From positions 2,272,001 to 2,336,000 of the forward strand of contig CAXXQS010000002.1 in assembly GCA_963674735.2 (NCBI GenBank): a DNA stretch of 64,000 nucleotides, read 5' to 3'. The notes under the pieces are model-generated. The model saw only the letters and a list, made by a program, of their open reading frames with translations, made no database searches and was not told the DNA's origin. Both the position numbers and the translations under genes were made by a program. Positions within the stretch are counted from its first letter, which is position 1; each line of letters begins with the position of its first letter. Shown one piece after another: positions 20,795-39,985 of the stretch. This DNA is from Myxococcota bacterium. Lineage in GTDB: Bacteria > Myxococcota_A > SURF-8.

Positions 20795-21546
20795 CGCGCA
20801 GCAACCGCGACTATTACGACGCCTTCAGTTCGGTGTACGAGAATGGACGCGAGCGGGCCTATCACCGGCTGATCGACGAGCTGGAATTGACGGCGCTGGC
20901 CCCGTATGCGCGTGGCAAGCGCGTGCTGGAGGCGGGCTGCGGCACCGGGTTGATCCTGGCGCGCTTGGCCGAGATAGCGAAGGAAGCGGTGGGCGTGGAC
21001 CAGTCGCCGGGCATGCTGGCGACGGCGCGTGCGCGCGGGCTGGATGTGTACGAGGCCGATCTAGTCGCGCTGCCGTTCGACGACGCGAGCTTCGATACCG
21101 TGTGCAGCTTCAAGGTGCTGGCGCATGTGGAAAACATCCGGGCGGCGCTGGCCGAGCTGGCGCGTGTGACGAAACCCGGCGGGCATCTGGTGCTGGAATT
21201 CTACAACCCGCAGAGCCTGCGCGGACTCATCAAGCGCGTGAAGCCCGCCACGGCTATTCCCGCAGAGCCCCTAAACACGGACTTGGAACGCAATTGCAGC
21301 GCAACCCAAGCGCTCGACGATCACCAGGTGTACACGCGTTTCGATAGGCTGGCGGACATCCGCGCCGTGCTGCCGCCCGGGCTGACCTGGGTGGAGACCG
21401 CCGGAGTACGCGTGGTGACGCCCATGGCCGGTATGCTGGAATGGCCGCTAGTCGGACGCATCCTCGCCGCCGCCGAGCGCGCTGTCCTGCGCTCGCGCCT
21501 CGCCCGCCTGGCGGGCTTCGTCATCGTCGTGTTGCGGAAGGAGTGA
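20791..21546 (+). CDS. Class I SAM-dependent methyltransferase (type 11)
   Basis: VLEAGCGTG, LPFDDASFD, ELARVTKPGG. Confidence 0.9.
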   Translation: MTRSNRDYYDAFSSVYENGRERAYHRLIDELELTALAPYARGKRVLEAGCGTGLILARLAEIAKEAVGVDQSPGMLATARARGLDVYEADLVALPFDDASFDTVCSFKVLAHVENIRAALAELARVTKPGGHLVLEFYNPQSLRGLIKRVKPATAIPAEPLNTDLERNCSATQALDDHQVYTRFDRLADIRAVLPPGLTWVETAGVRVVTPMAGMLEWPLVGRILAAAERAVLRSRLARLAGFVIVVLRKE

Positions 21547-24500: not shown

Positions 24501-24909
24501 TCTGCGGGTCGCCTAACGTTTTAAAAAGAGCGATGATAATTGGTTGGAGCGGGTCTCCAATTCGAGCCAAGGCTTCGATTGCCGACGCACGAGTATAGAG
24601 ATCGTTATGATAATCGGTGCTAAATAAAATCAAAGACGGTACCGCCTGGCTGGCTTTCGGACCCATCGCCCCAATTTGTTTGGCGGCAGCCCGAGCCTTG
24701 TTGACGTTGCCACTGTATAAATCCTGAACCAATCCCCGCAGCTCGGGGTCGGTAATTTCGGCGAGGTCGGGAGCCGAGATGGAAGGCGCGGGATTGTCGG
24801 ACGAGGTGGCGCAAAAGGCAGCCGATGGCGTCAGGCAGAGCGTCAGCCAGGCCGTCAGGCAGACGGCCCAAAGCAACCCCCACACAAGATATCGTCGTTC
24901 TCCCGGCAT
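21448..24909 (-). CDS. Signal peptide + HEAT repeats + TM helix + NACHT-like P-loop NTPase + C-terminal HEAT repeats
   Basis: HEAT motifs (AAAKQIGAMGPKASQAVPSL; AAILSLGSLGKYAETALGEL), TM WTAIAVVVLFAVFLFAHIFF, Walker A GQGGAGKT, Walker B ILPVVDHFSE, DPVAEYLAA. Confidence 0.75.
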   Translation of the reverse strand: MPGERRYLVWGLLWAVCLTAWLTLCLTPSAAFCATSSDNPAPSISAPDLAEITDPELRGLVQDLYSGNVNKARAAAKQIGAMGPKASQAVPSLILFSTDYHNDLYTRASAIEALARIGDPLQPIIIALFKTLGDPQTAIHHLSAESLCRLHTRSSSVLEIAIKHLLDENTNYPLGSTANLLACIGSDASSAIPALTKAMGYTRDSSRMLIARSLILLAFPELQTPAGLRQGLHSVDPLTGLIAVSGLLYHAPKMRKLFAHENNLSWVQPFINRFPPDQFASFLPDVLHLLKDPSRIIRDAAIFTLSEFQPPSKLVIESIFDALRVFKHNTSMLSTIERLGTQLPLNQQIDIFHTLTSGYHDEHWVNRYPGITTISVFSDSISAKRNDLSEKQILHMLQDLLRFTPSKSMNWKQHQEYNRISNATQSLQAELALRQRNETRDFIKGVLEEADWTAIAVVVLFAVFLFAHIFFHIPWDRRRRWTVSLFEFTHRHPSLTKWPVLLRIGFRLEHYASRPRTLDAWIQPRRQAAWDKANQCSCFAEMRKGFYHAMPVELTDCASDEQRPFDKPSPDDFKALMARDTLRLAISGQGGAGKTSLAYRLLSWCCDPTEHGSIAARPLLPWVLEDDLADSELRPDDLLATQIAQHKAFKITPVFARLLLDAGRILPVVDHFSEMNQKSREALSAALKGVPRWIVTTRLDSDCKTSATHRLQPKLMGPNEIKSFLEAFIELKDLEDYKQFGQDQSHLADMIIDSTTGAGPERGVTPLIVTLFAEQMEERYQNPDEAQRELPKDVPSLILESLNRSNKEPDLTKGELSDREVQRLMKGIAYACLEAEFKPARRAQDEVRAVFPDEADWDNKIHYLCENLGILKVYKDLFVSLRVSQDPVAEYLAAFFVIEAYGADEEKWADFCEAARSKPGELEEIRGFMHAVYTTSQIDAFKKQVPAKVVEELAGLAGLSWEEIKQKRLNDRVDSYSILLANGTVPDKLHAITTLKRILKNYSSNDHISSSIKHILIHSLADSSTRVVAKSAIALSELKRKDEHMIIELIKVVSDYKDDIAATAAILSLGSLGKYAETALGELYKYTNLNPGNPLRETAYYAIKQIENDLKDNTLMSYWPSSLLPQHDDDEARQAGEARAQDSALGGGEDASD

Positions 24910-25823
24910 GCGTCGCCCCTCGCGGTTCGTCGTGTTGTGCGCGTGTCTGAATCCTACTCCCAATCACGCCGGGCTGTCAATTTTGCGCGTCAATGGAGGA
25001 TGAGATAGGGGGCGTTTGGCGCTCGTTGCGCGGTTGGGTCGCTTGACCGCGGCACGCGAAAATCGCGAAAACGAACGTTTTGGATGAGCAGCGCCAAAAG
25101 GGAGGAAGGCTAACGGACACGGGGCTCGATTCGTTCAAAAGACAATCGGGCGGCCAATACGCGAAATGCGCTCGATACTCGGGCGTTGAAATTGTTGGCA
25201 TTTTCGCTTCCTGACACGCGCGTAACCCGCAAAACCCAGCGGAATGCTCGGATTGCCGTAATACGTCACACCTTCGGGGTGCCCTTTCGTGCGGTGTCTC
25301 CGATTCGCGAAAATGATCGAACCGGAACGCGGGTGGCCGAACCGGAAATGACCTTATTCGATCGGGCGTTCCGCAAGTATGGAGCGAATTTCAGAGCCGA
25401 GTTTGATGAATAGTCATGGGTTAAAACGTATGAGGAATACGTCAAACAAAAATATAATGAATGTAATATAATAAAAGGATTGATAATGCGGGGGATCGAT
25501 GTGACGTAGATGGCTGAAATCACAGCACAATATCGGTAATGCTGGGATGGCGGCCAGATGGGCTGTGAAAATCGGATAAAAGTACGAATAAGAAGTGTGA
25601 TATCAATTAGATACAGACTTCATGCATAGATGGCATTTAGTCGCTGGTTAAAGGGTAGGGGTGGGTCTGTTAGGCTAAAACATCCGTAATATCGGATAGT
25701 TGTACCGCTGACGGGTCCGTGCGCGCGGGGTTTTAGTGGGGTGCCCGTCAAGAATGAAAAGACGCCCGTGTATGCCGCAATCATGAGGCAAAGCGACGCC
25801 TTTTGCCAGGCCAAAAACCCACG

Positions 25824-25874: not shown

Positions 25875-28800
25875 TCAGGCTTTGTGTTTCGCCGCGAAAG
25901 CCAGTTCGTCGCGCAACGCGAATTTGGCTTCGGCCTTGGGCGGGAAACGATCCACGATCTCGGCCTGCACCGGCAACGGCGTGCGCGTCTTCTCGCCCAT
26001 ATCGAGCGGCATGACCAAGCCCTTGCGGCGATTTTCGGGCACCATGGGAAAGACCGCGATGCGTCCGGGTTTGGCCGCTTTAGATAAAACATAAGCCAAG
26101 CCGACCTGGCTGCCGTCGGGTAGCACCACCGCCGAGGTGACGTGCCCGATGAAGTCGCCGCGATTGCCCGCCACCTTGTCGCCGGGTTTGATGGGCTTCG
26201 TACCTCTTTCCGTAATCGTGAAACGCACGGTTTCCTTGTCGCGCGTCGCTTCCTTGGCTAATAACGCGCGCTTGCCGATGAAGAAGGGCTTGTGGAATTT
26301 TACGTAGGAGGGGAAGCCCGCGCCGCCCGGTGTCATGCCGTAGGGGCCTTCCAACTCGTGCCCGTAAAGCGGCAGACCCGCCTCGGTGCGGGTGGAATCG
26401 CGCGCCGCCAGACCCGCCGGAACCAGCTCGAAAGGCCGCCCGGCTTCGACGATCGTCGCCCACAGTTCCGGGGCGCGTTCGGGATGCACGAACAGTTCGA
26501 AGCCGATGCGCTCGCCGGTGTAGCCGGTACGCGAAATGACCACCGGCAGTCCGGCCAAGGTAAACTCGCCGCAGTCGGTGCGCTTAAGGGTCATAAAGGC
26601 GGAAAGCTGCTCGGGTGCGATCAGGCTGCGTAGCGCGTCGCCCGACCGCGGGCCCTGCAGCGCCAGTACCACGCGGCAGTCCTCGCCGTTTACCGGATCT
26701 TTCAGGTTGCGCAAAACGGTGGGGCGCACGATGCGCCGCTGGGGCACGTCGCGGTCGCATAAAACATCGCCGGTATTCACGGCGTTCAACCAGGCCCAGT
26801 CTTTGTCTTCGTTCGACGCGTTCACCACCAGCAGGTAGCGCTCGGCCGCAAGACGATAAACCATGATGTCGTCGAGAACCTGCGCGTCGGGATCGAGCAG
26901 GTAGGAGTAGTAGCTCTGGCCGTCGCCGATCCAGCGCGCGTAGTTGGTGCTCGCGAAATCGAGAAAAGCCGTAGCGTTCGGTCCGGAGACTTCAAAGCAA
27001 CCCATATGGCTGATATCGAATAAGGCGCAGGCTTCACGCACCGCCTTGTGCTCCTCCAGCGTCGAGGTGTACCACACGGGCATTTCCCAGCCGGCGAAGG
27101 GCACCATCTTTTTGGAAATCGCCGTGTGCGTCTCGTAAAGCGAGGTGCGTTTGAGCGGTGGATTCTCGGGCTCCGTCCAAACGAATTCGGGAAGCGCGGC
27201 CGCCGGGGGCAAGGCTTCCCGCAGCAGGCGTTGACCGACGAAATAGGGTTTGTGCATGGCGAACCAGGCGGTGTCGCCCGCCTCGATCAGGGATGCGACC
27301 GTCAGGGGATGCTGCGGAAGACCCGCTTCGATCACCGCTTCGCGGCGCGTGGCCAGGGCACAGAGTGTTGCCCCGAGTTTGATCAGCGCAATCTGAACGG
27401 CTTCGGCGCGCGCGGCGGGAACCAACAGGGTGGCGAGGGATTCGCCGCCCGCCGCCAATACGATGCCGTCTTTACCGGTGCATTCATGGGCCCATGCCGT
27501 TGCCTGTGCGCCCACCAGATCGAAGCGGTGCAGGCCCTCTCCGAGCGGCGCATCCGCCGCCGCCAGGTCTTCGACCACCACTGGGCCTTCCACTTTGGCG
27601 GTCAGGTCGTCCGGTTCGAAAAGCAGGTAGCCGTCGGCGTGCCCGCGCATCCAGGCCAGCACGTGGTGCGCCCGTTCGGGATGCGGGATAACGAGAAAGC
27701 CGTTGTGGCGCGGGTTTTCGTGAAGCGGCAGGCGCGCAAGCAGGACGTCGTCGAGGACATCGCCCTGGCCATCGAGCATCAGCGTGCGCAGCGTTTCACC
27801 CGCGGCGAGCGCGGACGCGTCGCCGGTGATCAGGTTCTGGATGTGCGCCTCGACGCGCGCGCCGGTGACGCGGATGACTCCGCCGGGAACCGCGAACAGG
27901 GCCGCGCCGTTCTGCATGGCGGCGGTGGTGTCCTGCTCGGCCGTCTGTTCCGTGGGGCAACGGGGCGGCAGCGGTTTGAGCAGGCTGTAATGCGGATAGC
28001 CCGAGGAACGCGGAGCCTCGCCCGCCAGTTCGCCCGCCAGATCGGCCACGTCGCGCTTGGCCGCTTCGAAAGCGGCGAATTCCACCTTACCGCGCGGCAG
28101 CGTGCCCAGAAGACCGTCGAAATGGAAAGGATGGATACCCTTTATGATGCGCGCCACCAGCTCGCCCAGGCGGTCGATCTGTTCGTCAGTGATGCCGCGC
28201 TGGGTGATCCAGGGGGTGCCCATGCGAACGCCGGTGGCCATGGCGGTGAGGTCGTCGCCGGGCAGGGTGTTTTTGTTGGCGACGATGCCGCACAGTTCCA
28301 GCAGGCGCACGGCCATTTCGCCGCGTAGCATTTCGTCGGTGACGCGCGGCAGCTTTTTGAGATCGATCAGGAACAGGTGTGTGTCGGTGCCGCCGTAGGC
28401 CAGCGAGAGCCCGTTGGCTTGAAGCGCCGCACACAGGCGTTGCGCGTTGGCCACGATGCGATGCTGCAGGCGTTTGAATTCGTCGCTCTGGGCCAGCTTC
28501 AAGGCCACCGCCAGAGCGGTGATGGTGTTGACGTGCGGTCCGCCCTGCTCGCCGGGGAAAACCGCCAGGTCGATCATTTGGGCCTTTTCCTCGTCGGTGG
28601 TGAGGATGATCGCGCCGCGCGGACCCATGAGTGTTTTGTGGGTCGTAAAGGTGGTGACATCGGCAATACCCACCGGGTTGGGATAGGCCCCGGCTGACGC
28701 CATTCCCGCCGGATGGGCGATATCGGCCATCAGCAAGGCTCCGCAGGCGTCGGCGATCTGGCGCAGACGCGGCCAGTCGGGTGCCCAAGGATAGGACGTG

Positions 28801-29456
28801 AAACCCGCGATGATCAGGTTGGGTCGATTTTCGAGCGCCAGCTTTTCCATTCGGTCGTAATCGAGACGCCCCGTGGCCGGACTGATGCCGTAGGGGACGA
28901 CCTTGTAGCGTTTGCCCGACATATGGAATTCGGAGCCGTGGCTCAGGTGCCCGCCCTGCATGAGGTCCATGCCCATGATGGTGTCGCCCGGCTCTAAAAA
29001 GGCCTCGAAGACCGCCAGATTGGCGGCCGCGCCGGAGAGCGCCTGCACGTTGGCGAAGATGCGTTCGCTGGCGGCATTCGGATTGGCGAAGAGGTCGGCG
29101 GCGCGCCGACGGCAGAGGGCCTCGACCTGGTTGGCGTAGTCGGTTCCTTTATAGAAGCGCCGATCGGCGTAGCGTCGATAATGCACAAGCTGGGCAGGCA
29201 GGTCGGCCAGATCCGCTTCAGGCAGGTAGGTCGCCATGGAGGACGGATAGCCTTCGGCGTAGAGATTGCCGTAAACCGATTCCATACTGCGCCGGACCGT
29301 CGGATGGCACAGGCTTTCGGATGGAATCATGATCAGACGGCGTACCTGTCGCTCTTCCTCCAGTTCGATCAGGTCGTGAATCACGGGATCGCAGTCACGC
29401 AGCTCGCCATCGAAGGGTGCCACGCCCACGGTTTTGGGAATCTCGCGCTCGGCCAT
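25875..29456 (-). CDS. glyA-gcvT: Serine hydroxymethyltransferase fused to a GcvT-like domain and a full GcvT aminomethyltransferase
   Basis: SHMT motifs YAEGYP, GGHLSHG, TTHKTLMGPRG (PLP Lys), FPGEQGGP; GcvT motifs FAGWEMPVWY, FDISHMG, SRTGYTGE, GLAARDSTRTEAGLPLYGHEL. Confidence 0.92.
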   Translation of the reverse strand: MAEREIPKTVGVAPFDGELRDCDPVIHDLIELEEERQVRRLIMIPSESLCHPTVRRSMESVYGNLYAEGYPSSMATYLPEADLADLPAQLVHYRRYADRRFYKGTDYANQVEALCRRRAADLFANPNAASERIFANVQALSGAAANLAVFEAFLEPGDTIMGMDLMQGGHLSHGSEFHMSGKRYKVVPYGISPATGRLDYDRMEKLALENRPNLIIAGFTSYPWAPDWPRLRQIADACGALLMADIAHPAGMASAGAYPNPVGIADVTTFTTHKTLMGPRGAIILTTDEEKAQMIDLAVFPGEQGGPHVNTITALAVALKLAQSDEFKRLQHRIVANAQRLCAALQANGLSLAYGGTDTHLFLIDLKKLPRVTDEMLRGEMAVRLLELCGIVANKNTLPGDDLTAMATGVRMGTPWITQRGITDEQIDRLGELVARIIKGIHPFHFDGLLGTLPRGKVEFAAFEAAKRDVADLAGELAGEAPRSSGYPHYSLLKPLPPRCPTEQTAEQDTTAAMQNGAALFAVPGGVIRVTGARVEAHIQNLITGDASALAAGETLRTLMLDGQGDVLDDVLLARLPLHENPRHNGFLVIPHPERAHHVLAWMRGHADGYLLFEPDDLTAKVEGPVVVEDLAAADAPLGEGLHRFDLVGAQATAWAHECTGKDGIVLAAGGESLATLLVPAARAEAVQIALIKLGATLCALATRREAVIEAGLPQHPLTVASLIEAGDTAWFAMHKPYFVGQRLLREALPPAAALPEFVWTEPENPPLKRTSLYETHTAISKKMVPFAGWEMPVWYTSTLEEHKAVREACALFDISHMGCFEVSGPNATAFLDFASTNYARWIGDGQSYYSYLLDPDAQVLDDIMVYRLAAERYLLVVNASNEDKDWAWLNAVNTGDVLCDRDVPQRRIVRPTVLRNLKDPVNGEDCRVVLALQGPRSGDALRSLIAPEQLSAFMTLKRTDCGEFTLAGLPVVISRTGYTGERIGFELFVHPERAPELWATIVEAGRPFELVPAGLAARDSTRTEAGLPLYGHELEGPYGMTPGGAGFPSYVKFHKPFFIGKRALLAKEATRDKETVRFTITERGTKPIKPGDKVAGNRGDFIGHVTSAVVLPDGSQVGLAYVLSKAAKPGRIAVFPMVPENRRKGLVMPLDMGEKTRTPLPVQAEIVDRFPPKAEAKFALRDELAFAAKHKA

Positions 29457-29543: not shown

Positions 29544-30006
29544 GGAACTTCCAAGGCTTTGCCGCGAAGCGTTTTCGGACTCGGAAAGCGGAGCAAGACC
29601 CGTTTCCGGCGCGGCATCAAACCTAGCATTAACCGGTAAATCATAAGTGATAATACGTATGTTTGAAATCGTGTTACGAAAAAGAAAGAGGTAGCAACTA
29701 CTTGATTTTATGGAATTAACCCTTGCAGCTCTTTTATTTCGATGATAGGCTGAGGTCCGTTTGGGCGCTGGTAGCAGTTTGAGTATGTTACCATTACTAT
29801 GCTGATACATCACTATGCAAGTTAAACGCGGATCTATTTGGGGGGTCAAATCGCGAGTAAGGCGGAATGCCGCGCTCTCTGTTTGTGCCTAACTGCGAAT
29901 GGACCGGTGTGTCCGTCTGCTAGACACACCGTGGATTGATGGACGTGTGTCAAGTATCGAACTTTGTTTGACGGATCTGCGAACTCATTTTCCGGAGGAA
30001 ATGCGC

Positions 30007-30219
30007 ATGGCAGAAAAAATGGAAACCAAAAAGAAGTTTGATGGTGAAAACGTGGAAATTCTTGCCGAGACCTATGAAGACGGCACTCCGCCGAAAGCCG
30101 ACCGCTGGCGGGGGAAATTGAAGAATCGGGAGCAGATGCTCAAATATATCAAAACGGGCCAGCGTTATTGGTACGACGAAGATTCGTACGGAAGCGAGAA
30201 GCGCAAAACGCCGGCCTGA
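30007..30219 (+). CDS. Small hypothetical protein heading the acs operon
   Basis: GGAGG RBS; 70 aa MAEKMETKKKFDGENVEIL...RYWYDEDSYGSEKRKTPA; same strand as, and directly upstream of, acsD. Confidence 0.7.
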   Translation: MAEKMETKKKFDGENVEILAETYEDGTPPKADRWRGKLKNREQMLKYIKTGQRYWYDEDSYGSEKRKTPA

Positions 30220-30286: not shown

Positions 30287-31762
30287 ATGACGGTTGAGAC
30301 CCCGAAGCAAAGCTATAGCGGAAGCATTCGGGCGATTCCCATCCCGGGCGACAAAGGATTTACGCTCGGTGGTGAGACGACCATGCCCTACTACCTATTC
30401 GAAGGGGAGATGCCCAATCCCCCGAAAATTGCGGTAGAGGTCAATGACGTCGAACCGGGGGAATGGGCCCAGGAACTGAAAGATCAGTGGGGCGACGTAC
30501 TCAAAGACCCGGTGAAATGGGCCAAAATGGCCCAGGATAAACTGGGTGCCGATCTGATCCATCTCGAACTGGTCGGGACCGATCCCAATGGACAGGATCT
30601 GGGGGCCGATCATGCCGTGGACGTGGTGAAGAAGGTGGCGGCCGCCATCGATATTCCCCTGGTCGTCTGGGGCTCGTCGAACCAAGAAAAGGATAAAGAT
30701 ATCCTGCGCGCGGTGGCTGAGGCCGTTACCGATCGGCAACTGATGATCGGACCGGTGCAGGAAGACAATTATAAACAGGTGGGCGCGGGTATTCTGGCGT
30801 ACAAACACATCGCCATCCCCAACAGCCCCATCGACATCAACCTGGCCAAGCAGCTCAACATTCTGCTCGGCAATCTGGGCCTGCCCGCCGACAAGATTTT
30901 GGTCGATCCCACCACGGGTGGCTTGGGATACGGCATGGAGTATAGCTACTCCGTCATGGAGCGCGCGCGTCTGGCGGCCCTGGTGCAGGAAGATGAAAAG
31001 CTGCAGTATCCGCTTTATTGCAACCTGGGTAAGGAAGTGTGGAAGGTCAAGGAAAGCAAGCTGAGTGCCGAGGAAGCTCCCGAACTGGGCGACCCGACCA
31101 AGCGCGGCGTGCTGATGGAACTGCTCACCGCGACCTCGGTTCTGGTGGCCGGCGCCAACGTGTTGGTGTTGCGTCATCCGGAGTCGGTGAAATACGTTCG
31201 CGAGCTGATCGACGATCTGACCAACGCCAACGAAAAACCGGGAATGCAGAAACCGGCAGCCATCGACCGCTCGGTGAAACTCGAAAAACCGAAAGCGGCC
31301 GCCAAACCGGCGGCTAAACCGGCGGCTAAACCGGCGGCCAAGCCTGCCGCCAAGCCTGCGCCCAAGGCAGACGACGCGGCCAAGAAGGCGGCCGAGGCGG
31401 AAGCCAAAGCCAAAGCGGAGGCGGCGGCCAAAGCCAAGGCGGAAGCGGAAGCCAAAGCGGATGCGGAAGCCAAAGCCAAAGCGGAGGCGGAAGCCAAGGC
31501 CAAGACCGACGTGGTTCCTGCGGCCGCTCCGGCCCCGGTTGCCACTGTGGTCGAAAGCGCCGACACCGAAACTCATATCGTCAAGACGTTGGATGCCGGT
31601 GACGACGACGGAAGCGTCACCATCGTCATTCACGTCGGTTCATCTGGAGAACAACAACAACAGGGCTCGTCCAGCGATGTGAACCAGTTGCAAGCGATGA
31701 TCAAACAGCAACAGGCCGAAATCGCCGAGCTCCGCGAAATCGTGGCGAGGAGGAAATCGTGA
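30287..31762 (+). CDS. acsD: Corrinoid Fe-S protein small (delta) subunit with a long C-terminal extension
   Basis: LGGETTMPYYLFEG, SPIDINLAKQLN, DPTTGGLGYGMEYSYSVMER, LRHPES; then an Ala/Lys/Glu linker and a coiled-coil tail. Confidence 0.93.
   Translation: MTVETPKQSYSGSIRAIPIPGDKGFTLGGETTMPYYLFEGEMPNPPKIAVEVNDVEPGEWAQELKDQWGDVLKDPVKWAKMAQDKLGADLIHLELVGTDPNGQDLGADHAVDVVKKVAAAIDIPLVVWGSSNQEKDKDILRAVAEAVTDRQLMIGPVQEDNYKQVGAGILAYKHIAIPNSPIDINLAKQLNILLGNLGLPADKILVDPTTGGLGYGMEYSYSVMERARLAALVQEDEKLQYPLYCNLGKEVWKVKESKLSAEEAPELGDPTKRGVLMELLTATSVLVAGANVLVLRHPESVKYVRELIDDLTNANEKPGMQKPAAIDRSVKLEKPKAAAKPAAKPAAKPAAKPAAKPAPKADDAAKKAAEAEAKAKAEAAAKAKAEAEAKADAEAKAKAEAEAKAKTDVVPAAAPAPVATVVESADTETHIVKTLDAGDDDGSVTIVIHVGSSGEQQQQGSSSDVNQLQAMIKQQQAEIAELREIVARRKS
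31285..31505 (+). repeat. Coding low-complexity repeats (AAKP)n and (AEAEAKAK)n in AcsD
   Basis: 12-nt tandem units such as GCGGCTAAACCG, followed by GCGGAAGCCAAAGCC-type units. Confidence 0.85.
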
Positions 31763-33894
31763 AAATTGAAATTAAAGTCGGATCCGATAAAGGTCAAGCG
31801 GCGGGAGCGTCTTCGGATGTGGCCGTGCTCAAGCAAATTTTCGAAACCAATCAAAAAGAAATCGCCGAGCTGAAGAAGATGCTCGCCGGTGGGCAGCCCG
31901 TCGTGGCGGCGGCTCCCCCGACCGTGGCGAAAGCGGCTCCCAAGCCGAAGAAAAACGTCATCAAAAGCATCGATCCGGCGACGCTGAAAACCATCGACAT
32001 GGCCTGCGAAGACAACGTCCAGGTCGTGTGGGATCGTCTGTCGGATCAGGAACCGCAGTGCACCTGGGGCAAGGGCGGTATCTGTTGCCGCATCTGCGCC
32101 ATGGGCCCCTGTCGCATCAAACCCACCAAGCCGGGTCAGCCCGAGAGCGTGGGCGTCTGCGGCGCGGGAGCCGATGTCATCGCCGCGCGTAACTTCGTGC
32201 GCATGATCGCCGCGGGCGCGGCGGCGCACTCGGATCACGGTCGCGCCGTGGCCGAAGCCTTGCTGCACACCGCCAAAGGCGAAATGCCCGGCTACGAAAT
32301 CAAGGACGAGCAGAAGCTGCTGCAGGTTGCCATCGATTTTGGTATTTCCATCGAAGATCGCAGCATCAAAGATATCGCCATCGACGTGGGCGAGAAAGCT
32401 CTGGCCGAGTTCGGTCAGCAGGAAGGCGAGATCGCCTTTACGCATAAGGCCCCCAAGAAACGCCTGGAACTGTGGCGCGAATTGGGCGTGGTGCCGCGCG
32501 GCGTCGATCGCGAAATCGTCGAGATCATGCACCGCACGCATATGGGCGTCGACCAGGACATCCATAGCCTGATGCTGCAGGGTACGCGCGCATCCATCGC
32601 CGATGGCTGGGGCGGCTCGATGATCGGTACCGAGTTGCAGGACATCCTGTTCGGGACGCCGGTTCCGATCCTCGGTGATGCCAACCTGGGTATTCTGAAG
32701 GACGACGAAGTCAACATCATCATCCACGGCCACGAACCGCTGCTGTCCGAGCAGATCGTGGCGGCGGCGCAAGACCCGGAGATGCTGAAATACGCCGAAA
32801 GCAAAGGCGCGAAGGGCATCAACCTGGGTGGTATCTGCTGCACCGCCAACGAGATTCTCATGCGCCACGGCGTGAACGTGGCCGGTAACTTCCTCCAGCA
32901 GGAACTCGCCATCGCCACCGGCGCGGTGGAAGCCATGGTGGTGGACGTGCAATGCATCATGGCCTCGCTGCCCAAGGTGGCCGAGACTTTCCATACCCGC
33001 GTGATTACCACCAGCCCGCGCGCCCAGATCACCGGCGCCGAGCACATGGAATTCAACGAGCACGACGCGGTCAACAACGCGAAGGATATCGTCAAAGCCG
33101 CCATCGACAATTACGAAAACCGCGGCAAGAAGCATGCGGTCAAGATCCCCAGCGAAAAGCATACCATGGTGGCGGGTTTCTCCCACGAGACCATCGCCTA
33201 TCTGCTGGGCGGCATGTATCGCACCAGCTACAAGCCGTTGAACGACAACATCATCAACGGCAAGATTCGCGGCATCGCGGGCGTGGTCGGCTGCAACAAC
33301 CCCAAAGCGCCCCACGACAAATACCATGTCGAGATGGTCAAAGAGCTGATCAAGAACGACGTGATCGTGCTCATGACCGGTTGCGGCGCGCTGTCGCTGG
33401 GCAAGGAAGGACTGCTGGTACCCGAGGCGGCCAAGGAATTCGCCGGACCGGGTCTGGCCGAAGTCTGCGAAACCGTCGGTATTCCGCCGGTGCTGCATAT
33501 GGGTTCCTGCGTCGATAACTCCCGCATCCTGATGGCCGCCACCGCGGTGGTCAAGGAGGGCGGCTTGGGCGACGATATCAGCGACCTGCCGGCCGCCGGC
33601 GCCGCCCCCGAGTGGATGAGCGAAAAAGCCATCTCCATCGGACACTACTTCGTATCGTCCGGTGTTTACACGGTCTTCTCCACGGCTTTCCCCACCTTGG
33701 GAGCGCCGGGCTTCACGGACTTGTTGTTCAAGGAGTACGAGACGATCACGGGTGGCAAGTGGGACTACATCGAAGACCCGGTCGAGGCGGCCCAGGCCAT
33801 GATCGCGCATATCGACAAGAAGCGGAAAGAGCTTGGAATCGATAAGCAGCGTGAGCGTGTGCTGGCCGATATGGCTGCGCGTCGCGATGTCTAG
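31759..33894 (+). CDS. cooS: Anaerobic Ni-Fe carbon monoxide dehydrogenase catalytic subunit
   Basis: QCTWGKGGICCRICAMGPC; C-cluster ligands HGHEP, GICCTANE, VDVQC, VGCNN, TGCG, GSCVDN; GTG start after a GAGGAGG RBS. Confidence 0.96.
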   Translation: MKIEIKVGSDKGQAAGASSDVAVLKQIFETNQKEIAELKKMLAGGQPVVAAAPPTVAKAAPKPKKNVIKSIDPATLKTIDMACEDNVQVVWDRLSDQEPQCTWGKGGICCRICAMGPCRIKPTKPGQPESVGVCGAGADVIAARNFVRMIAAGAAAHSDHGRAVAEALLHTAKGEMPGYEIKDEQKLLQVAIDFGISIEDRSIKDIAIDVGEKALAEFGQQEGEIAFTHKAPKKRLELWRELGVVPRGVDREIVEIMHRTHMGVDQDIHSLMLQGTRASIADGWGGSMIGTELQDILFGTPVPILGDANLGILKDDEVNIIIHGHEPLLSEQIVAAAQDPEMLKYAESKGAKGINLGGICCTANEILMRHGVNVAGNFLQQELAIATGAVEAMVVDVQCIMASLPKVAETFHTRVITTSPRAQITGAEHMEFNEHDAVNNAKDIVKAAIDNYENRGKKHAVKIPSEKHTMVAGFSHETIAYLLGGMYRTSYKPLNDNIINGKIRGIAGVVGCNNPKAPHDKYHVEMVKELIKNDVIVLMTGCGALSLGKEGLLVPEAAKEFAGPGLAEVCETVGIPPVLHMGSCVDNSRILMAATAVVKEGGLGDDISDLPAAGAAPEWMSEKAISIGHYFVSSGVYTVFSTAFPTLGAPGFTDLLFKEYETITGGKWDYIEDPVEAAQAMIAHIDKKRKELGIDKQRERVLADMAARRDV

Positions 33895-33931: not shown

Positions 33932-36136
33932 ATGTCGAAAATCATCGCCTCTGCCGGTATTCGCGGTGCCTACAAGATCGTTGAGCGCGCGGAGAAGGCT
34001 TGGACAGTGGCCATGGATACCCATGGCGGCAATACGGAAGTCGGCTTTCCCAACACGGGATACTACCTGCCGATTATTTACGGAATGATGGGCCACAAGG
34101 TCAATACCCTGGAAGACATGAAAGCCGTGTTCGACCAGTGCAAGAGCCTGCTGCCCGCCCCGGTGTACAGCAAGCACCATCTGCCCTTCCTCGGACCGGC
34201 CCTCGATGCCGGTATGGCGACGCTGTTCGCCGAGGAATGCAGCGAGTGCCTGCGCTACCTGAACGAGCCGGACTTCTACCTCACCGGTGAGGATGTCACG
34301 GCCGACAAAATCTGGCTCGGCGCGGCCGACGACGTCATCATGCGTAAGCGCGGCGTCGAGTTCGTCGACGGTTCGGCCCCCGGCTTCGCCGCCATCCTCG
34401 GCGCGGCGCCCAACGCCGACATCGCCGCCAAGATCGCCCTGGAGTTGCAGGAGAAAAGCCTGTACGTCTTCATGGCGGGCAGCCACAACGGCAAAACCTT
34501 CTCCGAGCAGCTCGTGGAAGCGGGCGTTCAGATCGGGTGGGGGACGCGCCTGGTTTCCTTCGGTCCCGACACCTCGGCGGCCGTCTTTGCGGTCGGCTTC
34601 GCCACTCGCGCCGCCATGAGCTTCGGCGGCATCGAGCCGGGCGACTTCCGCAAGATCCTGATTTACAACAAAGACCGCGTGTTCGCCTTCGCGCTCACCT
34701 TCGGTGATGTGATGGACGAATGGTACGCCAACGGCCTGGGCATCGTGAACTACGGCTTCCCGGTCATCGCCGATACGCCGATTCCCGAGATTCTGCCGAC
34801 CGGCGTGTGCACCTACGAGCATGTTGTTGCGAATATTCCTTACGACAACATCGTGCAGAAAGCCATCGAGACACGCGGCCTGAAGGTCAACGTCACCGAA
34901 GTTCCCGTGCCGGTTTCCTACGGTCCGGCCTTCGAGGGCGAGCGCGTGCGCGGCGAAGACATCTACTACGAAGCGGGCGGCGGCCGGACACAGGCGGTCG
35001 AGCTGGTGCAGATGCGCCAGATGGACGAGATCGAGGACGGCAAGGTCGAGGTGGTCGGTCCCACCCTCAAAGACCTCGGCCCCGGCAAGAAAACCCCGCT
35101 GGCCATTCACGTTCTGGTGGCCGGACGCGGTTTCCAGGAGGACTTCGAGCCCATCCTGGAACGCCAGATTCACCATTTGATCAACTTCGCCCAGGGTTCC
35201 ATGCACATCGGCCAGCGCGACATCGCCTGGGTGCGTATCGGCAAAGGCGCGGTGGAGAAGGGCTTCGATCTGGTCGACATCGGCAAGATCCTGCATGCCA
35301 AGTTCCATCAGGACTTCGGCAGCATTCTCGACAAGGTGCAAGTGGTCATCTATACGGATGAGGCCAAGGTCAAAGAGATGGTCAAAACCGCGCGGGCCGC
35401 TTACAAGCAGCGCGACGACCGGGTGGAAGGCATGTCCGATGAAGACATCCCCACCTTCTACTCCTGTACCCTGTGCCAGTCTTTCGCGCCGACCCACGTT
35501 TGCGTGGTGACCCCCGAACGGACCGGTCTGTGCGGGGCGTATAGCTGGCTCGACTGCAAGGCCTCCTTCGAAATCAACCCCACCGGTCCCAACCAGCCCA
35601 TCGAAAAGGGCAAGACCATCGATCCGGTCAAGGGCCAATGGGAAGGCGTGAACGACTTCGTTTCGAAGGCCTCGCGCGGAAACGTGGCGGCTTACAACGC
35701 CTACAGCATCATGGATCAGCCCATGACGAGCTGCGGCTGCTTCGAGGCCATCGCGGCCTTCTTGCCCCAGTGCAACGGCATCATGATCGTCGACCGCGAT
35801 CACTCGGGTATCACGCCTTGCGGGATGAAATTCACCACGCTGGCGGGTTCCGTGGGCGGCGGCGCGATTACGCCGGGCTTCGTGGGACATTCCAAGTTGT
35901 ACATCACCAGCCGCAAGTTCGTGGCGGCCGAGGGCGGTATCAAGCGCATCACCTGGATGCCCAAGCGTCTCAAAGAAGAGATCTCCGACCGCTTCAACAA
36001 GCTGGCGGAGGCGATCGGGGAACCGGATCTGCTGGACAAAATCGCAGACGAAACGGTCGGTGTGACGGAGGACGAGATCTATTCCTTCCTGGAAGAGAAG
36101 GGTCATCCGGCGTTGTCGATGGATCCGATGATGTAG
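33932..36136 (+). CDS. acsB: Acetyl-CoA synthase (bacterial long form)
   Basis: FPNTGYYLP, GPAFEGER, CTLCQSFAPTHVC, GLCGA, MTSCGCFE. Confidence 0.96.
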   Translation: MSKIIASAGIRGAYKIVERAEKAWTVAMDTHGGNTEVGFPNTGYYLPIIYGMMGHKVNTLEDMKAVFDQCKSLLPAPVYSKHHLPFLGPALDAGMATLFAEECSECLRYLNEPDFYLTGEDVTADKIWLGAADDVIMRKRGVEFVDGSAPGFAAILGAAPNADIAAKIALELQEKSLYVFMAGSHNGKTFSEQLVEAGVQIGWGTRLVSFGPDTSAAVFAVGFATRAAMSFGGIEPGDFRKILIYNKDRVFAFALTFGDVMDEWYANGLGIVNYGFPVIADTPIPEILPTGVCTYEHVVANIPYDNIVQKAIETRGLKVNVTEVPVPVSYGPAFEGERVRGEDIYYEAGGGRTQAVELVQMRQMDEIEDGKVEVVGPTLKDLGPGKKTPLAIHVLVAGRGFQEDFEPILERQIHHLINFAQGSMHIGQRDIAWVRIGKGAVEKGFDLVDIGKILHAKFHQDFGSILDKVQVVIYTDEAKVKEMVKTARAAYKQRDDRVEGMSDEDIPTFYSCTLCQSFAPTHVCVVTPERTGLCGAYSWLDCKASFEINPTGPNQPIEKGKTIDPVKGQWEGVNDFVSKASRGNVAAYNAYSIMDQPMTSCGCFEAIAAFLPQCNGIMIVDRDHSGITPCGMKFTTLAGSVGGGAITPGFVGHSKLYITSRKFVAAEGGIKRITWMPKRLKEEISDRFNKLAEAIGEPDLLDKIADETVGVTEDEIYSFLEEKGHPALSMDPMM

Positions 36137-36177
36137 GGCTTTGTCTTCCGGCAACATGCCATATGGAGGGACATTAG

Positions 36178-37524
36178 ATGGGACTGAGTGGAATCCAGAT
36201 TTTTAAGCTACTGCCGAAGACCAACTGCGGTGAGTGTGGCGTGCCCACTTGCCTGGCTTTCGGTATGAACCTGGCGGCGGGTAAGGCGGAGTTGTCGCAA
36301 TGCCCGTACGTCAGCGAAGAAGCCCAAGAAAAACTTGCCGCCGAGTCGGCGCCCCCCATTCGCACCGTCAATTTCGGGTCCGGCGAAAACGTGGTGCCCG
36401 TTGGGGGTGAAACCGTGCTGTATCGGCACGAAAAAACCTTCGTCAACAAACCCGGTCTGGGCCTGCTCGTCTGCGACGACGAGCCGGAAGCCGACGTGAA
36501 GGAAAAGCTGCAGCGCTTCACCAATCTGCAGTACGAGCGCGTCGGATTGAATCTCCGGGCCGAAGTGGTCGCGCTTAAATCCAACACCGGCGACCCCGCC
36601 AAGTTCAAGGCGCTGGCGGAAGCGGTCAAAGCCACCGATGCCGCGCCGGTTCTCATCGGCGAGCCGGAAGTGCTCAAGGCGGGCCTGGCGGTATTGAAAG
36701 ACCGCAAGCCGGTTCTTTATGCGGCGACCTTCTCCAACGCGGCCGAAATGGGCCAACTGGCGCTCGAATCGGGCTGCCCCCTGGCGGTGCGCGGCGAGAA
36801 CCAGGACGACCTGGTCGAACTGACCGAGTATTTCACCGCCATGGGGATCAAGGATCTGGTCCTCGATCCGGGCAAGCGGACGCTGCGCGATTCGCTGTAC
36901 GACCATGTATCCATGCGCCGTCTGGCTATCAACAAGGTTTTCCGCCCCCTGGGCTTTCCGACCATCACCTTCCCCTGCGAGATGACCAACGATCCCATGC
37001 TTGAAACCATGTATGCGGGCGTGTTCATCGCGAAGTACGCGGGCATCGTGATTTTGTCGGATCTCAAGGGCGAAAACCTCTTCCCGCTGCTGTTGCAACG
37101 GCTCAATATCTACACCGATCCGCAGCGGCCCATGAAAACCACCGAGGGCATCTACGAGTTCAACGGCCCGACCGAGAACTCGCCGGTGCTGGTCACGAGC
37201 AACTTCTCCTTGACATACTTCATCGTATCCGGTGAAATTGAGGCCAGTCGCGTTCCGGCCTACCTCATGGTGCTCGACACCGACGGTTTGTCGGTGCTGA
37301 CTGCTTGGGCGGCCGGGAAGTTCGTCGGCGAAACCGTCGGCGCGCTGCTGAAGAAAACGAAGATCGAAGAGAAACTGGCCACGCGGAAACTGGTTCTTCC
37401 CGGCTATGTCGCCGTCATCTCGGGCGACACCGAGGAGGAAGTGGGCAAAAACTGGGAGGTCCAGATCGGGCCGCGCGAAAGCGCTCACATCCCGGCGTTT
37501 CTGCGTCAGAATTTCCCAGCCTGA
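36178..37524 (+). CDS. acsC: Corrinoid Fe-S protein large (gamma) subunit
   Basis: LPKTNCGECGVPTCLAF...CP, IYTDPQRP, TSNFSLTYF, SVLTAWAAGKF, GPRE. Confidence 0.96.
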   Translation: MGLSGIQIFKLLPKTNCGECGVPTCLAFGMNLAAGKAELSQCPYVSEEAQEKLAAESAPPIRTVNFGSGENVVPVGGETVLYRHEKTFVNKPGLGLLVCDDEPEADVKEKLQRFTNLQYERVGLNLRAEVVALKSNTGDPAKFKALAEAVKATDAAPVLIGEPEVLKAGLAVLKDRKPVLYAATFSNAAEMGQLALESGCPLAVRGENQDDLVELTEYFTAMGIKDLVLDPGKRTLRDSLYDHVSMRRLAINKVFRPLGFPTITFPCEMTNDPMLETMYAGVFIAKYAGIVILSDLKGENLFPLLLQRLNIYTDPQRPMKTTEGIYEFNGPTENSPVLVTSNFSLTYFIVSGEIEASRVPAYLMVLDTDGLSVLTAWAAGKFVGETVGALLKKTKIEEKLATRKLVLPGYVAVISGDTEEEVGKNWEVQIGPRESAHIPAFLRQNFPA

Positions 37525-37601
37525 GCGGATGGGGGGGGGAATCTTCCCCCCGCCGCCTGGCGGCGCTTTCAACGGATCGACGAGTATAGGAGGGGATACG
37601 A

Positions 37602-38498
37602 ATGAGCATGAAAGTTATCGCCGAGAACGTCAATGTGATGTCGCGGTCGCTCGGACCGGCGATGAAAGAGCGCAATGCCGCGCCCATCATCGCCATGGCC
37701 AAGCAATGTGCGGAAAACGGCGCGGATTACCTCGACATCAACATCGGCCCGGCGCGTAAAAACGGCGACGAGCTGCTGGAATGGATCGTCAAGACCATTC
37801 AGTCCGAGGTGCAACTGCCGCTGTTTATCGACACCACCAACCAGAACATCCAGGAAACCGGCCTGAAATTCCATAACAACGATTTCGGGCGTCCCATCAT
37901 CAATTCCATCGATGCGGTTGCCGAGCGGATGGACTTTCTGATGCCGCTGGCCAAGAAATACGATGCCGGTTTCGTGGCGCTGATGTACGGCAAGGACGGT
38001 ATTCCGCGTGATACCGACGAGCGTGGCATTCTGGCGGCCGACCTCATCGGCAAGTCGATGGAATACGGCTTCGAAGATCCGGAAGCCCTTTTCTTCGATC
38101 CGATCGTGGTGCCGGTTTCCTCGCAGCAGAACCAGGTTCTCTCCTGCTGGGAAGCCACCGGCATGATCGACGACATGATGCCGGGCGCCATGAGCACCTG
38201 CGGATTGTCCAATGTTTCGAACGGTTCCCCGGAGCATCTGCGCGCTGTCATCAATCAGACCTACCTGATGATGCTCAAGCGCCAGGGTATGCGTTCGGCC
38301 ATCATGGACGGACTGGATACCGAGATCATTTCCATCGCCAAAGGCGAGCATCCCGAATGGGAAGCCGTGGTGGCCAAGGCCATGGACGGTGAAGCCATCG
38401 ATATGGACGGCCTGTCCGAGCGTGAGCGCAACTACGTGAAGACAGTCAAGATCCTCAAGGGCGACGCGCTGTATTCCGACTCCTGGTTGGAACTGTAG
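37602..38498 (+). CDS. acsE: Methyl-THF:corrinoid Fe-S protein methyltransferase (pterin-binding TIM barrel)
   Basis: IAENVN, DINIGP, IDT, INSI, FDP, GLSNVSNG; position in the acs operon. Confidence 0.88.
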   Translation: MSMKVIAENVNVMSRSLGPAMKERNAAPIIAMAKQCAENGADYLDINIGPARKNGDELLEWIVKTIQSEVQLPLFIDTTNQNIQETGLKFHNNDFGRPIINSIDAVAERMDFLMPLAKKYDAGFVALMYGKDGIPRDTDERGILAADLIGKSMEYGFEDPEALFFDPIVVPVSSQQNQVLSCWEATGMIDDMMPGAMSTCGLSNVSNGSPEHLRAVINQTYLMMLKRQGMRSAIMDGLDTEIISIAKGEHPEWEAVVAKAMDGEAIDMDGLSERERNYVKTVKILKGDALYSDSWLEL

Positions 38499-38505
38499 CG
38501 GTCCG

Positions 38506-39198
38506 ATGTCCCAAGAGTCTCCCACCCGCCCCAAGCTGGTGGAGCAGGAAAATCTCGACGTGGCGGCGCGGCTGGCGCAGGACATCCTGCGTCGCCTCGA
38601 CCCCGCGGCGATCGCCCGGAAATGCGGTGCCGAGCTGTTCGATAAGGATGGCCGCCCGCATCTGCGCGTTTCCTACTTCACCGATCCCATCGTGATCGAT
38701 CCCTCCGACGGCCGTATGGCGAAAGAATCCGGAGACGGCGTTCCACTTTGGGAACAAATCATCATCCTGCACTATCTAACCCACGACGGCCGACCGTTGG
38801 CGGTGGAGGATCAACGTCCCATCGCCTTCAAGGAGATTCCCGATGGTCGCTTTTACGCCGAGCCTTTCCGGCGGCGTTCCGTTTTGCCGCTGATCGCCGT
38901 GTTTGGTGAAAAGCCCGCTCTGTTGCGGCAGGCGGCGCTGGCGCTCGCTGGGCGTGAAAGCACGGGAGCCGACGTGGCGGTGGTGGTCAACGCCTTTCCC
39001 GAAGCGCCGGTGACGGTGTTTTTATGGCAGGGCGACGATGAGTTTCCGCCCGAGGCCAATTTGCTCTTTCGCGCGGACATCCCCACGTTTTTCTCGGCGG
39101 AAGACGTGGCGGTGATTTCGGGTATTTTGGTCGGTCGCTTGAAAAAGCAAGCCCAGTTGATCGAGGCGGCGGCCGACACAGATGAACACAAGTCCTAG
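38506..39198 (+). CDS. DUF3786-family protein
   Basis: QIIILHYL, FKEIPDGRFY, LWQGDDEFPPEANLLF, AEDVA; family commonly found near acs genes. Confidence 0.85.
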   Translation: MSQESPTRPKLVEQENLDVAARLAQDILRRLDPAAIARKCGAELFDKDGRPHLRVSYFTDPIVIDPSDGRMAKESGDGVPLWEQIIILHYLTHDGRPLAVEDQRPIAFKEIPDGRFYAEPFRRRSVLPLIAVFGEKPALLRQAALALAGRESTGADVAVVVNAFPEAPVTVFLWQGDDEFPPEANLLFRADIPTFFSAEDVAVISGILVGRLKKQAQLIEAAADTDEHKS

Positions 39199-39208
39199 GA
39201 GGTGAGTG

Positions 39209-39985
39209 GTGAAACTGAAGCTGGCATTTGGTGGCAAGGGCGGCGTGGGTAAAACGACCGTGACCGCGCTCATGGCCCGGTTGCTGGCGAAAAAGGGTAA
39301 ACGCGTGATCGCCGTGGATGCCGATCCCGTGGCCAATCTGGCGGCGGCATTGGGGATTCCGGAAGACGAGCCCATCACGCCCATCTCCCAACTCTCCGAT
39401 CTGATCGCCGAGCGCACCGGTTCGCAAAAAGGCACCTACGGCGGTTTTTTCAAGCTTAATCCGCGTGTCGACGATATTCCCGAGCGTTTTTCGCTCGACC
39501 GCGACGGCGTGAAACTGTTGGTGATGGGCACGGTGGACAGCGGCGGTTCGGGCTGCATCTGCCCGGAAAGCGTGATGCTCAAAGCCCTCATGCAGCATCT
39601 GGTGCTTTACAACGACGACGTGGTGCTGATGGACATGGAGGCCGGGGTGGAGCATCTGGGACGCGCCACGACCGGATCGGTGGATGCACTGCTGACAGTG
39701 GTCAATCCCGGTGCGCGCAGCCGCGTGGCCGCCGAGCGCATCCGCAAGCTGGCCAGCGATCTCGGCATCAAACGCGTGCTCGTTATCGGTAACCGCGTGC
39801 GCGGTCCCGAGGACGAAGCGCTCATCCGCGAGGCGCTGTCGGAGTTTGAGATTCTGGGATTTCTACCCGAAATGGATGAACTCATCCAGGCCGACCGAAA
39901 AGGCGTACGGCCTTTCGAGAACCTCGACGAACTGCCGGAGTCGGTGCATGTGCTGGCCGAGCGTTTGATCAACCTTTCGGAGTAA
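39209..39985 (+). CDS. cooC: CooC/AcsF Ni-insertion ATPase
   Basis: GKGGVGKTT, VDADP, GSGCICPE (CxC), DMEAGVEHLGR. Confidence 0.93.
   Translation: MKLKLAFGGKGGVGKTTVTALMARLLAKKGKRVIAVDADPVANLAAALGIPEDEPITPISQLSDLIAERTGSQKGTYGGFFKLNPRVDDIPERFSLDRDGVKLLVMGTVDSGGSGCICPESVMLKALMQHLVLYNDDVVLMDMEAGVEHLGRATTGSVDALLTVVNPGARSRVAAERIRKLASDLGIKRVLVIGNRVRGPEDEALIREALSEFEILGFLPEMDELIQADRKGVRPFENLDELPESVHVLAERLINLSE

Follow-up and report, generated by a model that had tools for sequence, protein, structure and literature searches.

In the 64,000-nt window analysed here, from the genome of a Myxococcota bacterium (assembly GCA_963674735.2, contig CAXXQS010000002.1, positions 2,272,001 to 2,336,000), the first two genes of a complete acs operon encode proteins that carry homologous modules at facing termini: the C-terminus of AcsD, small subunit of the corrinoid iron-sulfur protein (CFeSP), and the N-terminus of CooS (AcsA), the carbon monoxide dehydrogenase (CODH). 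We refer to these modules as the D tag and the S tag. Archaea carry out this part of the Wood-Ljungdahl pathway with a complex of megadalton size, ACDS (acetyl-CoA decarbonylase/synthase), and bacteria with separate complexes, CODH/ACS (ACS, acetyl-CoA synthase) and CFeSP. We put at about even the chance that the two tags form a cognate C-terminal/N-terminal docking pair that tethers CFeSP to CODH/ACS; the reading of the tags as terminal docking or tethering modules, in a pathway whose bacterial enzymes were thought to have none, is partly supported by the analysis below, which shows functional coupling and selection.

Homologous modules at the acsD-cooS junction

AcsD ends in VTIVIHVGSSGEQQQQGSSSDVNQLQAMIKQQQAEIAELREIVARRKS and CooS begins with MKIEIKVGSDKGQAAGASSDVAVLKQIFETNQKEIAELKKMLAGG. 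BLASTP alignment of the last 48 residues of AcsD with the first 44 of CooS gives 19/44 identities and 29/44 positives with one gap (30.4 bits, E 4e-8), and the Smith-Waterman score of 74 was reached by none of 5000 composition-preserving shuffles of the CooS tag (mean 23.9 +/- 4.7, maximum 57). A preliminary description of the window had remarked on this likeness, and the sequence comparison confirms the two ends as homologous modules with a strand-loop-helix pattern. Also borne out was a 14-nt repeat, GAAATCGCCGAGCT, whose two copies stand 140 nt apart on either side of the GTGA overlap of the genes and encode E-I-A-E-L in different reading frames; it occurs exactly twice in the window, against an expectation of 0.01. 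Over their whole length the D and S tags are only 53% identical in nucleotides as against 43% in protein, which argues that the likeness is kept at the protein level and is not that of a recent DNA copy.

The hidden Markov model (HMM) of the tag identified no further copies among 96,810 six-frame open reading frames (ORFs) of the genome that holds the window (G000; 5.26 Mb, three contigs, 94% complete): the two known copies scored E 1e-28 and 4e-25 and the next match E 0.76. AcsD and CooS are thus the answer to the question, posed in the preliminary description, of which proteins of this genome carry the tag, and none was found by the HMM in the rest of the operon, from acsB to cooC (33932..39985). 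No Pfam family matched over either tag at E <= 1e-3, and no NCBIfam family matched the isolated tags at E <= 0.01.

Both tags lie outside the catalytic folds, a point of the preliminary description on which domain limits and solved structures agree. In AcsD, Pfam CdhD (PF03599) matches residues 23-256 (E 1.3e-37, 129.9 bits against a cut-off of 24.8) and NF003377 scores 532.5 bits against a cut-off of 527, which, with the acs operon context, identifies the protein as a member of the AcsD/CdhD family; matches to NF040759 (WLP_AcsD) and NF003376 mark it as the bacterial type. The solved small subunits 4djd_D, 2h9a_B and 9fzy_E (309-323 aa) align end to end with AcsD residues 1-315 and leave a C-terminal surplus of 176 residues. 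CooS matches Prismane (PF03063) over residues 108-674 (E 3.4e-176, 587.3 bits) and TIGR01702 over residues 71-694 (683.5 bits, cut-off 478), and PDB entry 6ytt_B matches it at E 1e-208; its full-length domain and the adjoining acsB identify it as a Ni,Fe-CODH catalytic subunit. Solved CODHs begin to align at CooS residues 55-79, an N-terminal surplus of about 55-66 residues.

The CooS start at 31759 is well supported, since it is the first ATG, GTG or TTG in the cooS frame after a stop, is preceded by an AGGAGG ribosome-binding site 5 nt upstream, and belongs to a junction that recurs in four relatives. The ribosome-binding site is supplied by the Arg-Arg codons of the AcsD tail, and an AGGAG-type site occupies the equivalent position in G003, G004, G006 and G009, genomes of the same order, where the cooS start codon is ATG (G004 and G003) or GTG (G006 and G009). 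The genes overlap by GTGA or ATGA, save in G003, in which they are 17 nt apart, and the ribosome-binding site lies inside the acsD tail. The preliminary description had allowed that CooS might start downstream, at an MLAGG sequence; this methionine has no counterpart in the relatives compared, and the proviso did not hold. In G009, a 70-contig draft, acsD and cooS are each broken by apparent frameshifts (loci L003/L007/L017), AcsD at its Glu/Ala/Lys repeat and CooS after about 390 codons, and protein P0022 (406 aa) is a truncated call of this AcsD; the frameshifts are probably assembly errors in low-complexity sequence.

Each tag is set apart from its enzyme by a linker, as the preliminary description had it. 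The D tag stands at the end of an arm of about 125 residues: about 45 Pro/Ala/Lys-rich residues, including (AKPA)n, which AlphaFold2 models without secondary structure and at low predicted local distance difference test (pLDDT) values, about 44 residues predicted as a single long Glu/Ala/Lys-rich helix, and about 38 more. From the AlphaFold2 model of AcsD 300-491, built on four aligned rows with a mean pLDDT of 60, the secondary structure alone was taken. It places the Glu/Ala/Lys helix at model residues 63-106 (pLDDT 66-76), two short strands at model residues 121-124 and 130-136 (AcsD 420-423 and 429-435, pLDDT about 55), the tag strand VTIVIHV at AcsD 444-450 and a terminal helix at 462-490 (pLDDT 70-85). 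The 420-435 region shows an alternating hydrophobic pattern at the same place in relatives, and the model suggests, with low confidence, that the AcsD module is larger than the tag first described by these two strands. Residues 327-475 give a weak TolA-like match (TIGR02794, E 4.9e-6, below cut-off). On the CooS side the linker comprises Ala/Pro/Lys-rich residues 45-66, and in the AlphaFold2 model of the tag alone residues 16-45 form a helix, with a pLDDT of about 91 over residues 21-40.

The tag helix carries hydrophobic residues at 3-4-3-4 spacing (V22, L25, I29, Q32, I36, L39 and V43 in AcsD-tag numbering), with L25 and L39 invariant and Q32 a nearly invariant polar residue of the core. Of the two strands, that of the D tag has hydrophobic residues on both faces, and that of the S tag (M-K-I-E-I-K-V) is amphipathic, as expected of an edge strand.

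Distribution, selection and matched change of the tags

The order to which the window belongs is represented by ten species genomes in our collection, and seven of them encode AcsD. Whether both copies co-occur across genomes had been left as a question in the preliminary description; in five of the seven the acsD-cooS junction has both tags (G000, G003, G004, G006 and G009, E <= 1.6e-14 each), two genomes carry neither tags nor linkers (G001, AcsD of 314 aa; G008, AcsD of 315 aa), and none carries a single tag. The tagged genomes come from two families, the first with G000, G004 and G003 and the second with G006 and G009, and the CooS proteins of G001 and G008 start about 10-25 residues before the core. 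The CooS of the untagged G001 (loci L014/L074) begins with MANEVEVKKKKVISVDP, in which a short alternating E-V-E-V-KKKK stretch resembles the S-tag strand and Lys loop; judged by this resemblance it could be a remnant left after loss of the tag, or a seed of it.

Purifying selection acts on both tags. In a comparison of the congeneric G006 and G009, the D tag has a ratio of nonsynonymous to synonymous substitution rates (dN/dS) of 0.10 (42 codons, dS 0.62) and the S tag one of 0.12 (40 codons, dS 0.72), with 0.04 for the AcsD core. Together with the five paired genomes, these values dispose of the reservation that the duplication might be private to one strain and free of selection.

Beyond the order, strong paired matches among 401 Myxococcota genomes came only from the same five. 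Fourteen other Myxococcota genomes gave weak matches to the helix alone (E 5e-5 to 9e-3), and the five inspected were unrelated coiled-coil stretches in other proteins. The tag profile had no match at E <= 1 in the 80 best CODH loci of other lineages (best E 2.5). A profile of ten tags run against 1.84 billion protein representatives, which stand for 50% clusters so that tagged proteins may sit behind untagged representatives, returned 15 matches at E <= 1e-3, of which one is a true tag, P0001, a 194-aa CooS fragment close to that of G004; as to the other 14, the four that were read are repetitive coiled-coil or helix-only sequences and the remaining ten match the helix part only. Homologue searches, whose word index is too coarse for such peptides, found only the window's own protein with CooS 1-60 and nothing with AcsD 435-491, and a protein atlas search with AcsD 416-491 gave no usable match. 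A degenerate DNA pattern for KIEIKVG, too loose to be informative, hit at least 120 loci in metagenome contigs, and none of the 120 listed matched the tag HMM (best E 0.11). The best 120 of 4207 AcsD homologues include 15 of at least 400 aa, and six of these bear a D tag (E <= 2.8e-10), P0017, P0018 and P0020 being new. Across the searches of Myxococcota, other CODH loci and protein representatives, no confident match fell outside one tagged clade. In a tree of AcsD cores this clade of ten sequences (support 86/83) holds all tagged sequences and also the untagged G001 and P0024, with the untagged G008 as its sister (97/93); a single origin of the tags is the simplest reading of this distribution.

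Position-specific features distinguish the D tag from the S tag, and the two are not interchangeable. D-tag orthologues keep a V[TR]IVI..G strand, an acidic loop and an RRxS end, and orthologous S tags keep an MK[IV]EI.VG strand and a Lys/Gly loop; among G004, G006 and G009 orthologous tags are 40-49% identical, compared with 30-33% for the D and S paralogues within a genome. Even so, the two tags of one genome change in step. The distance from the strand to the invariant Leu (D/S) is 11/11 in G006 and G009, 16/15 in G000 and 14/15 in G004, and the two tags of G000 have SSDV and EIAEL in common. In G003 both tags are of another flavour (F.F/I..LP ... KLTE[IV]); they are 39% identical to each other and each only 12-31% identical to its orthologues, and P0020 represents a second lineage with an AcsD of the G003-like flavour. 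Matched change of this kind is what co-evolution of an interface would predict. Recent gene conversion of whole tags is not supported as the sole cause of the likeness between the two tags: in G000 the D/S nucleotide identity of 53% is not above that of orthologues, and only the 14-mer is identical. Partial gene conversion could have contributed to the likeness.

A putative docking pair and competing explanations

The preliminary description had gone on to propose a tether. The both-or-neither pattern, the matched changes and the linkers fit a docking or tethering pair, and this part of the proposal has gained in support; that the peptides bind, in what geometry and with what kinetic benefit, is what we infer. 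We propose that the C-terminal module of AcsD would pair with the N-terminal module of the CODH made from the next, translationally coupled gene. Each module is made up of a β-strand, a loop and an amphipathic helix that runs for about 3.5 heptads and keeps a Gln or Asn in its core; the helices would pack side by side and the strands form a small sheet, which the two extra strands of AcsD might extend. The stoichiometry could be 1:1, or 2:2 on the CODH dimer, where a single 2:2 bundle and two 1:1 pairs are equally plausible, and hydrophobic residues at g positions fit bundles bigger than a dimer. The arm of about 125 residues, together with a CooS linker of about 22, would be long enough for CFeSP to swing between the methyltransferase and the A-cluster of ACS, and the Glu/Ala/Lys helix of about 44 residues would span roughly 6-7 nm if straight. 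Such an arrangement would be expected to give a high local concentration of the methyl carrier and a fixed stoichiometry, with freedom to reach the methyltransferase, and coupled translation across the GTGA overlap would promote synthesis in equal amounts and pairing at an early stage. Predictions of a 1:1 complex from alignments of the AcsD tail (58 aa) and the CooS tag (54 aa), run without controls, gave interaction scores from aligned errors (ipSAE) of 0.18 and 0.19, below the mark of 0.32, and are counted neither for nor against the pairing.

Several observations weigh against a docking pair. The S-tag strand is not predicted in the AlphaFold2 monomer, and the AlphaFold2 models are shallow (four to five rows; mean pLDDT 60 and 70). 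In none of the five genomes do the heptad e and g charges speak more for hetero- than for homo-pairing, so that the sequences would accommodate D-D and S-S association just as well. The likeness of the two tags within a genome could in part reflect gene conversion, and partial conversion or a receptor shared by both tags would likewise produce the matched change. The five tagged genomes are related and probably go back to a single gain, and both-or-neither therefore rests on very few independent events; moreover, the gene trees do not fix the positions of the untagged G001 and P0024 inside the tagged clade. The existence of untagged close relatives, among them P0024 (313 aa), the nearest AcsD core at 73% identity to that of the window, shows the tags to be dispensable. 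Finally, CODH/ACS and CFeSP of Clostridium autoethanogenum are found together in solved entries 9fzy, 9fzz and 9g00 although they are untagged.

The components of the proposed tether have parallels in other systems. Ala/Pro-rich linkers of the E2 component of 2-oxo acid dehydrogenases and domain II of TolA are swinging-arm or spacer elements, and the Pro/Ala/Lys- and Glu/Ala/Lys-rich segments of AcsD resemble spacers of this sort, which let a carrier domain reach several active sites; the AcsD arm differs in ending in a putative docking module and in not being part of one polypeptide core. Myxococcota are also rich in polyketide synthases (PKS) and nonribosomal peptide synthetases (NRPS). The docking domains of PKS and NRPS are the subject of a review (PMC9113145). 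They too are short segments, one closing a subunit at its C-terminus and the other opening, at its N-terminus, the subunit that the neighbouring gene encodes, and they lie outside the catalytic folds; they are often helical, coiled-coil or strand-adding, and their cognate classes set the choice of partner. The tags share with docking-domain pairs their place as short terminal modules of consecutive subunits outside the catalytic folds, and have no sequence membership in a described docking-domain family; unlike those domains, the partners here are homologous to each other, and the enzymes are Wood-Ljungdahl metalloenzymes and not assembly lines.

The other of the two closest functional parallels, beside these docking domains, concerns the same pathway step. 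The accessible text of a preprint on archaeal ACDS (bioRxiv 10.64898/2026.07.07.736967) describes a CFeSP small subunit with a coiled-coil helix in a disordered terminal extension, with CODH (through the N-terminus of CdhA) and ACS held via disordered termini, and proposes as the benefit a local concentration of partner-exchanging modules. The same text puts this helix in the N-terminal region of archaeal CdhD, predicts for it a homo-oligomeric coiled coil, either hexa- or octameric, and states that the region is not conserved in bacterial AcsD. The tags resemble this arrangement, so far as it is described there, in having a coiled-coil helix (462-490) in an extension with a low-confidence linker, and differ in placement: the helix is N-terminal in CdhD, whereas here it lies at the C-terminus of AcsD with a homologous copy at the N-terminus of CODH. 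Given the different placement and the reported lack of conservation, an independent origin is likely, and the docking pair would be a bacterial counterpart, evolved on its own, to the tether of archaeal ACDS.

The homology of the tags would also suit homotypic oligomerisation, in which S tags zip the CODH dimer, D tags oligomerise CFeSP in the manner of archaeal CdhD, and any CFeSP-CODH link is incidental or arises in mixed bundles. The a/d core and the e/g charges suit homo-pairing no less than hetero-pairing, hydrophobic residues occur at g positions too (M/I/L28 and I/L/M42), suggesting bundles larger than dimers, and archaeal CFeSP self-assembles via a coiled coil in the accessible account of the preprint cited above (bioRxiv 10.64898/2026.07.07.736967). 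We nevertheless consider this explanation unlikely, as it leaves unexplained the joint gain or loss of the tags (five genomes with both, two with neither, none with one), the joint switch of flavour in G003 and the distinct strand and loop features that D and S orthologues each conserve.

The preliminary description had offered a shared targeting peptide as its alternative to a tether, and an address tag of this kind, by which both peptides bind a third component (a scaffold, a membrane or cytoskeletal protein, or a compartment shell) and do not contact each other, would also produce a matched flavour of the two tags in each genome through the common receptor. Related peptides on the termini of two enzymes of one pathway, joined by a flexible linker, have the pattern of encapsulation or targeting peptides; those of bacterial microcompartments (BMCs) and encapsulins are terminal amphipathic helices behind low-complexity linkers, found in related form on several enzymes of a pathway, whereas the tag has a conserved β-strand and is confined to AcsD and CooS, with AcsB, AcsC and AcsE lacking it. 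G000, at 94% completeness, has no match to the BMC shell (PF00936; controls E. coli and Synechococcus positive) or to encapsulin (PF04454; three control genomes positive). Neither tag shows Sec or Tat features, and the CooS N-terminus, MKIEIKVGSDKGQAAGASSD..., read by eye, has no hydrophobic stretch or core and no twin arginine. Among candidate genes for a receptor, none varies in step with the tags; a small ORF upstream of acsD, described below, also stands beside untagged AcsD in other phyla. The targeting alternative is weakened accordingly, and we consider it unlikely.

Least probable in our estimate is a tandem duplication tolerated without a role in assembly, whether as a by-product of overlapping genes and translational coupling or as a tail that aids solubility or stability. 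Close relatives (G001, P0024 and G008) do without the tags, which evolve faster than the enzyme cores, orthologous tags being 40-49% identical against about 65-70% for AcsD cores. Such tolerance is difficult to square with a dN/dS of about 0.1 in both tags, with heptad a/d residues, a core Gln and a strand pattern that two families have retained, with a likeness held at the protein level in two different reading frames, and with losses that take tags and linkers from both proteins together.

How CFeSP reaches the ACS active site, and why archaea and bacteria differ in this, is an active structural question, on which the entries 9fzy, 9fzz and 9g00 and, in its accessible part, the 2026 ACDS preprint (bioRxiv 10.64898/2026.07.07.736967) bear. 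Literature searches, in a library without most subscription journals, turned up no account of terminal tags on AcsD or CooS of bacteria. A genetically separable bacterial tether would offer a direct handle on whether proximity limits acetyl-CoA synthesis, and the tags are small, modular and, with two flavours, possibly orthogonal, so that, if they bind as proposed, they could serve as docking parts for engineered CO2-fixing assemblies.

Long AcsD proteins of other lineages and neighbouring genes

The long form of AcsD is itself already known, in that AcsD residues 1-423 match positions 1-417 of NCBIfam NF003377 (432 positions). In the 80 best CODH loci of other lineages 52 AcsD ORFs were recognised, 12 of them with tails of 159-229 aa; 11 of the 12 tails are Glu/Ala/Lys-rich, and in the twelfth (L113) AcsD is joined to a small conserved domain. 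A clade of metagenome-assembled genomes (MAGs) labelled as delta-proteobacterial (loci L071, L078, L081-L083, L085, L087, L094 and L106; also proteins P0061, P0077, P0082, P0088, P0100 and P0127) has an AcsD lengthened by some 220 Glu/Ala/Lys-rich residues, which end in GPKEMKVAEIQLSPVDKLLAQINRVNKRT or in ..TAAAxQK....[IL]...L..[VI]HRR variants. The CooS proteins of these nine loci share a conserved N-terminal extension, MASEEAKETLKVVEKEKKK, which, unlike the S tag, has no helix. Homology of the GPKEMKVAEIQLSPVDKLLAQINRVNKRT-type motif to the Myxococcota tags was rejected (hhalign probability 0.9%), and the paired extensions may constitute an analogous arm-and-dock system. Armed AcsD proteins with lineage-specific ends hint, at the level of sequence, at a wider theme. 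On this basis we suggest, tentatively and with somewhat less than even confidence, that an anaerobic Myxococcota lineage independently built an "ACDS-like" supercomplex, with strand-helix docking on a swinging arm of more than 10 nm in at least two co-evolving flavours, that the Glu/Ala/Lys-armed AcsD proteins of other lineages with different ends follow the same principle, and that tethering of the methyl carrier is recurrent and convergent.

The features of the operon and of the junction are collected in Table 1.

Table 1. Coordinates of the acs operon genes and of the segments and junction elements of AcsD and CooS (positions in the window).
Feature	Position	Strand	Description	Basis
acsD	30287-31762	+	first gene of operon; 491 aa, CdhD domain	Pfam
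cooS/acsA	31759-33894	+	second gene; 711 aa, GTG start, Prismane/CODH	Pfam
acsB	33932-36136	+		Pfam
acsC	36178-37524	+		Pfam
acsE-like	37602-38498	+	pterin-binding methyltransferase	Pfam
DUF3786 gene	38506-39198	+		Pfam
cooC	39206-39985	+	CooC-type ATPase	Pfam
AcsD catalytic core	30287..31234	+	CFeSP small subunit, residues 1-316	Pfam, NCBIfam, PDB alignments
AcsD linker	31235..31369	+	Pro/Ala/Lys-rich, residues 317-361	composition; AlphaFold2
AcsD long helix (predicted)	31370..31501	+	Glu/Ala/Lys-rich, residues 362-405	AlphaFold2
AcsD pre-tag segment	31502..31615	+	residues 406-443, two predicted short strands	AlphaFold2
D tag	31616..31759	+	residues 444-491; strand, Gly/Ser/acidic loop, amphipathic helix, RRKS end	
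14-nt repeat, first copy	31718..31731	+	acsD frame	
AGGAGG ribosome-binding site	31748..31753	+	cooS site, within last acsD codons	
S tag	31759..31890	+	residues 1-44; strand MKIEIKV, Lys/Gly loop, amphipathic helix	
14-nt repeat, second copy	31858..31871	+	cooS frame	
CooS linker	31891..31956	+	Ala/Pro/Lys, residues 45-66	sequence; solved-CODH alignment limit
CooS catalytic core	31957..33894	+	CODH	Prismane, TIGR01702, PDB 6ytt_B

Upstream of acsD lies a small ORF (29899-30219, forward strand) whose true start is likely near 30007 or 30019, giving a protein of about 66-70 aa with a core of ...WRG...RYWY...GSEKRKTPA, which neither Pfam nor NCBIfam matches. G009 and MAGs labelled Spirochaetota and Leptospirales (L048 and L069) conserve it in the same place upstream of acsD, and in L113 the domain shares an open frame with AcsD, at the C-terminal end. 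Found beside untagged AcsD in other phyla as well, this small protein is associated with acs genes and not with the tags.

On the reverse strand, a 1193-aa ORF (25875-29456) that adjoins the acs operon fuses a serine hydroxymethyltransferase (PF00464) to a glycine-cleavage T-protein aminomethyltransferase domain (PF01571), an unusual union of two folate-dependent C1 enzymes. Upstream of this fusion, also on the reverse strand, lies a gene for a 1171-aa HEAT-repeat protein (21448-24963).

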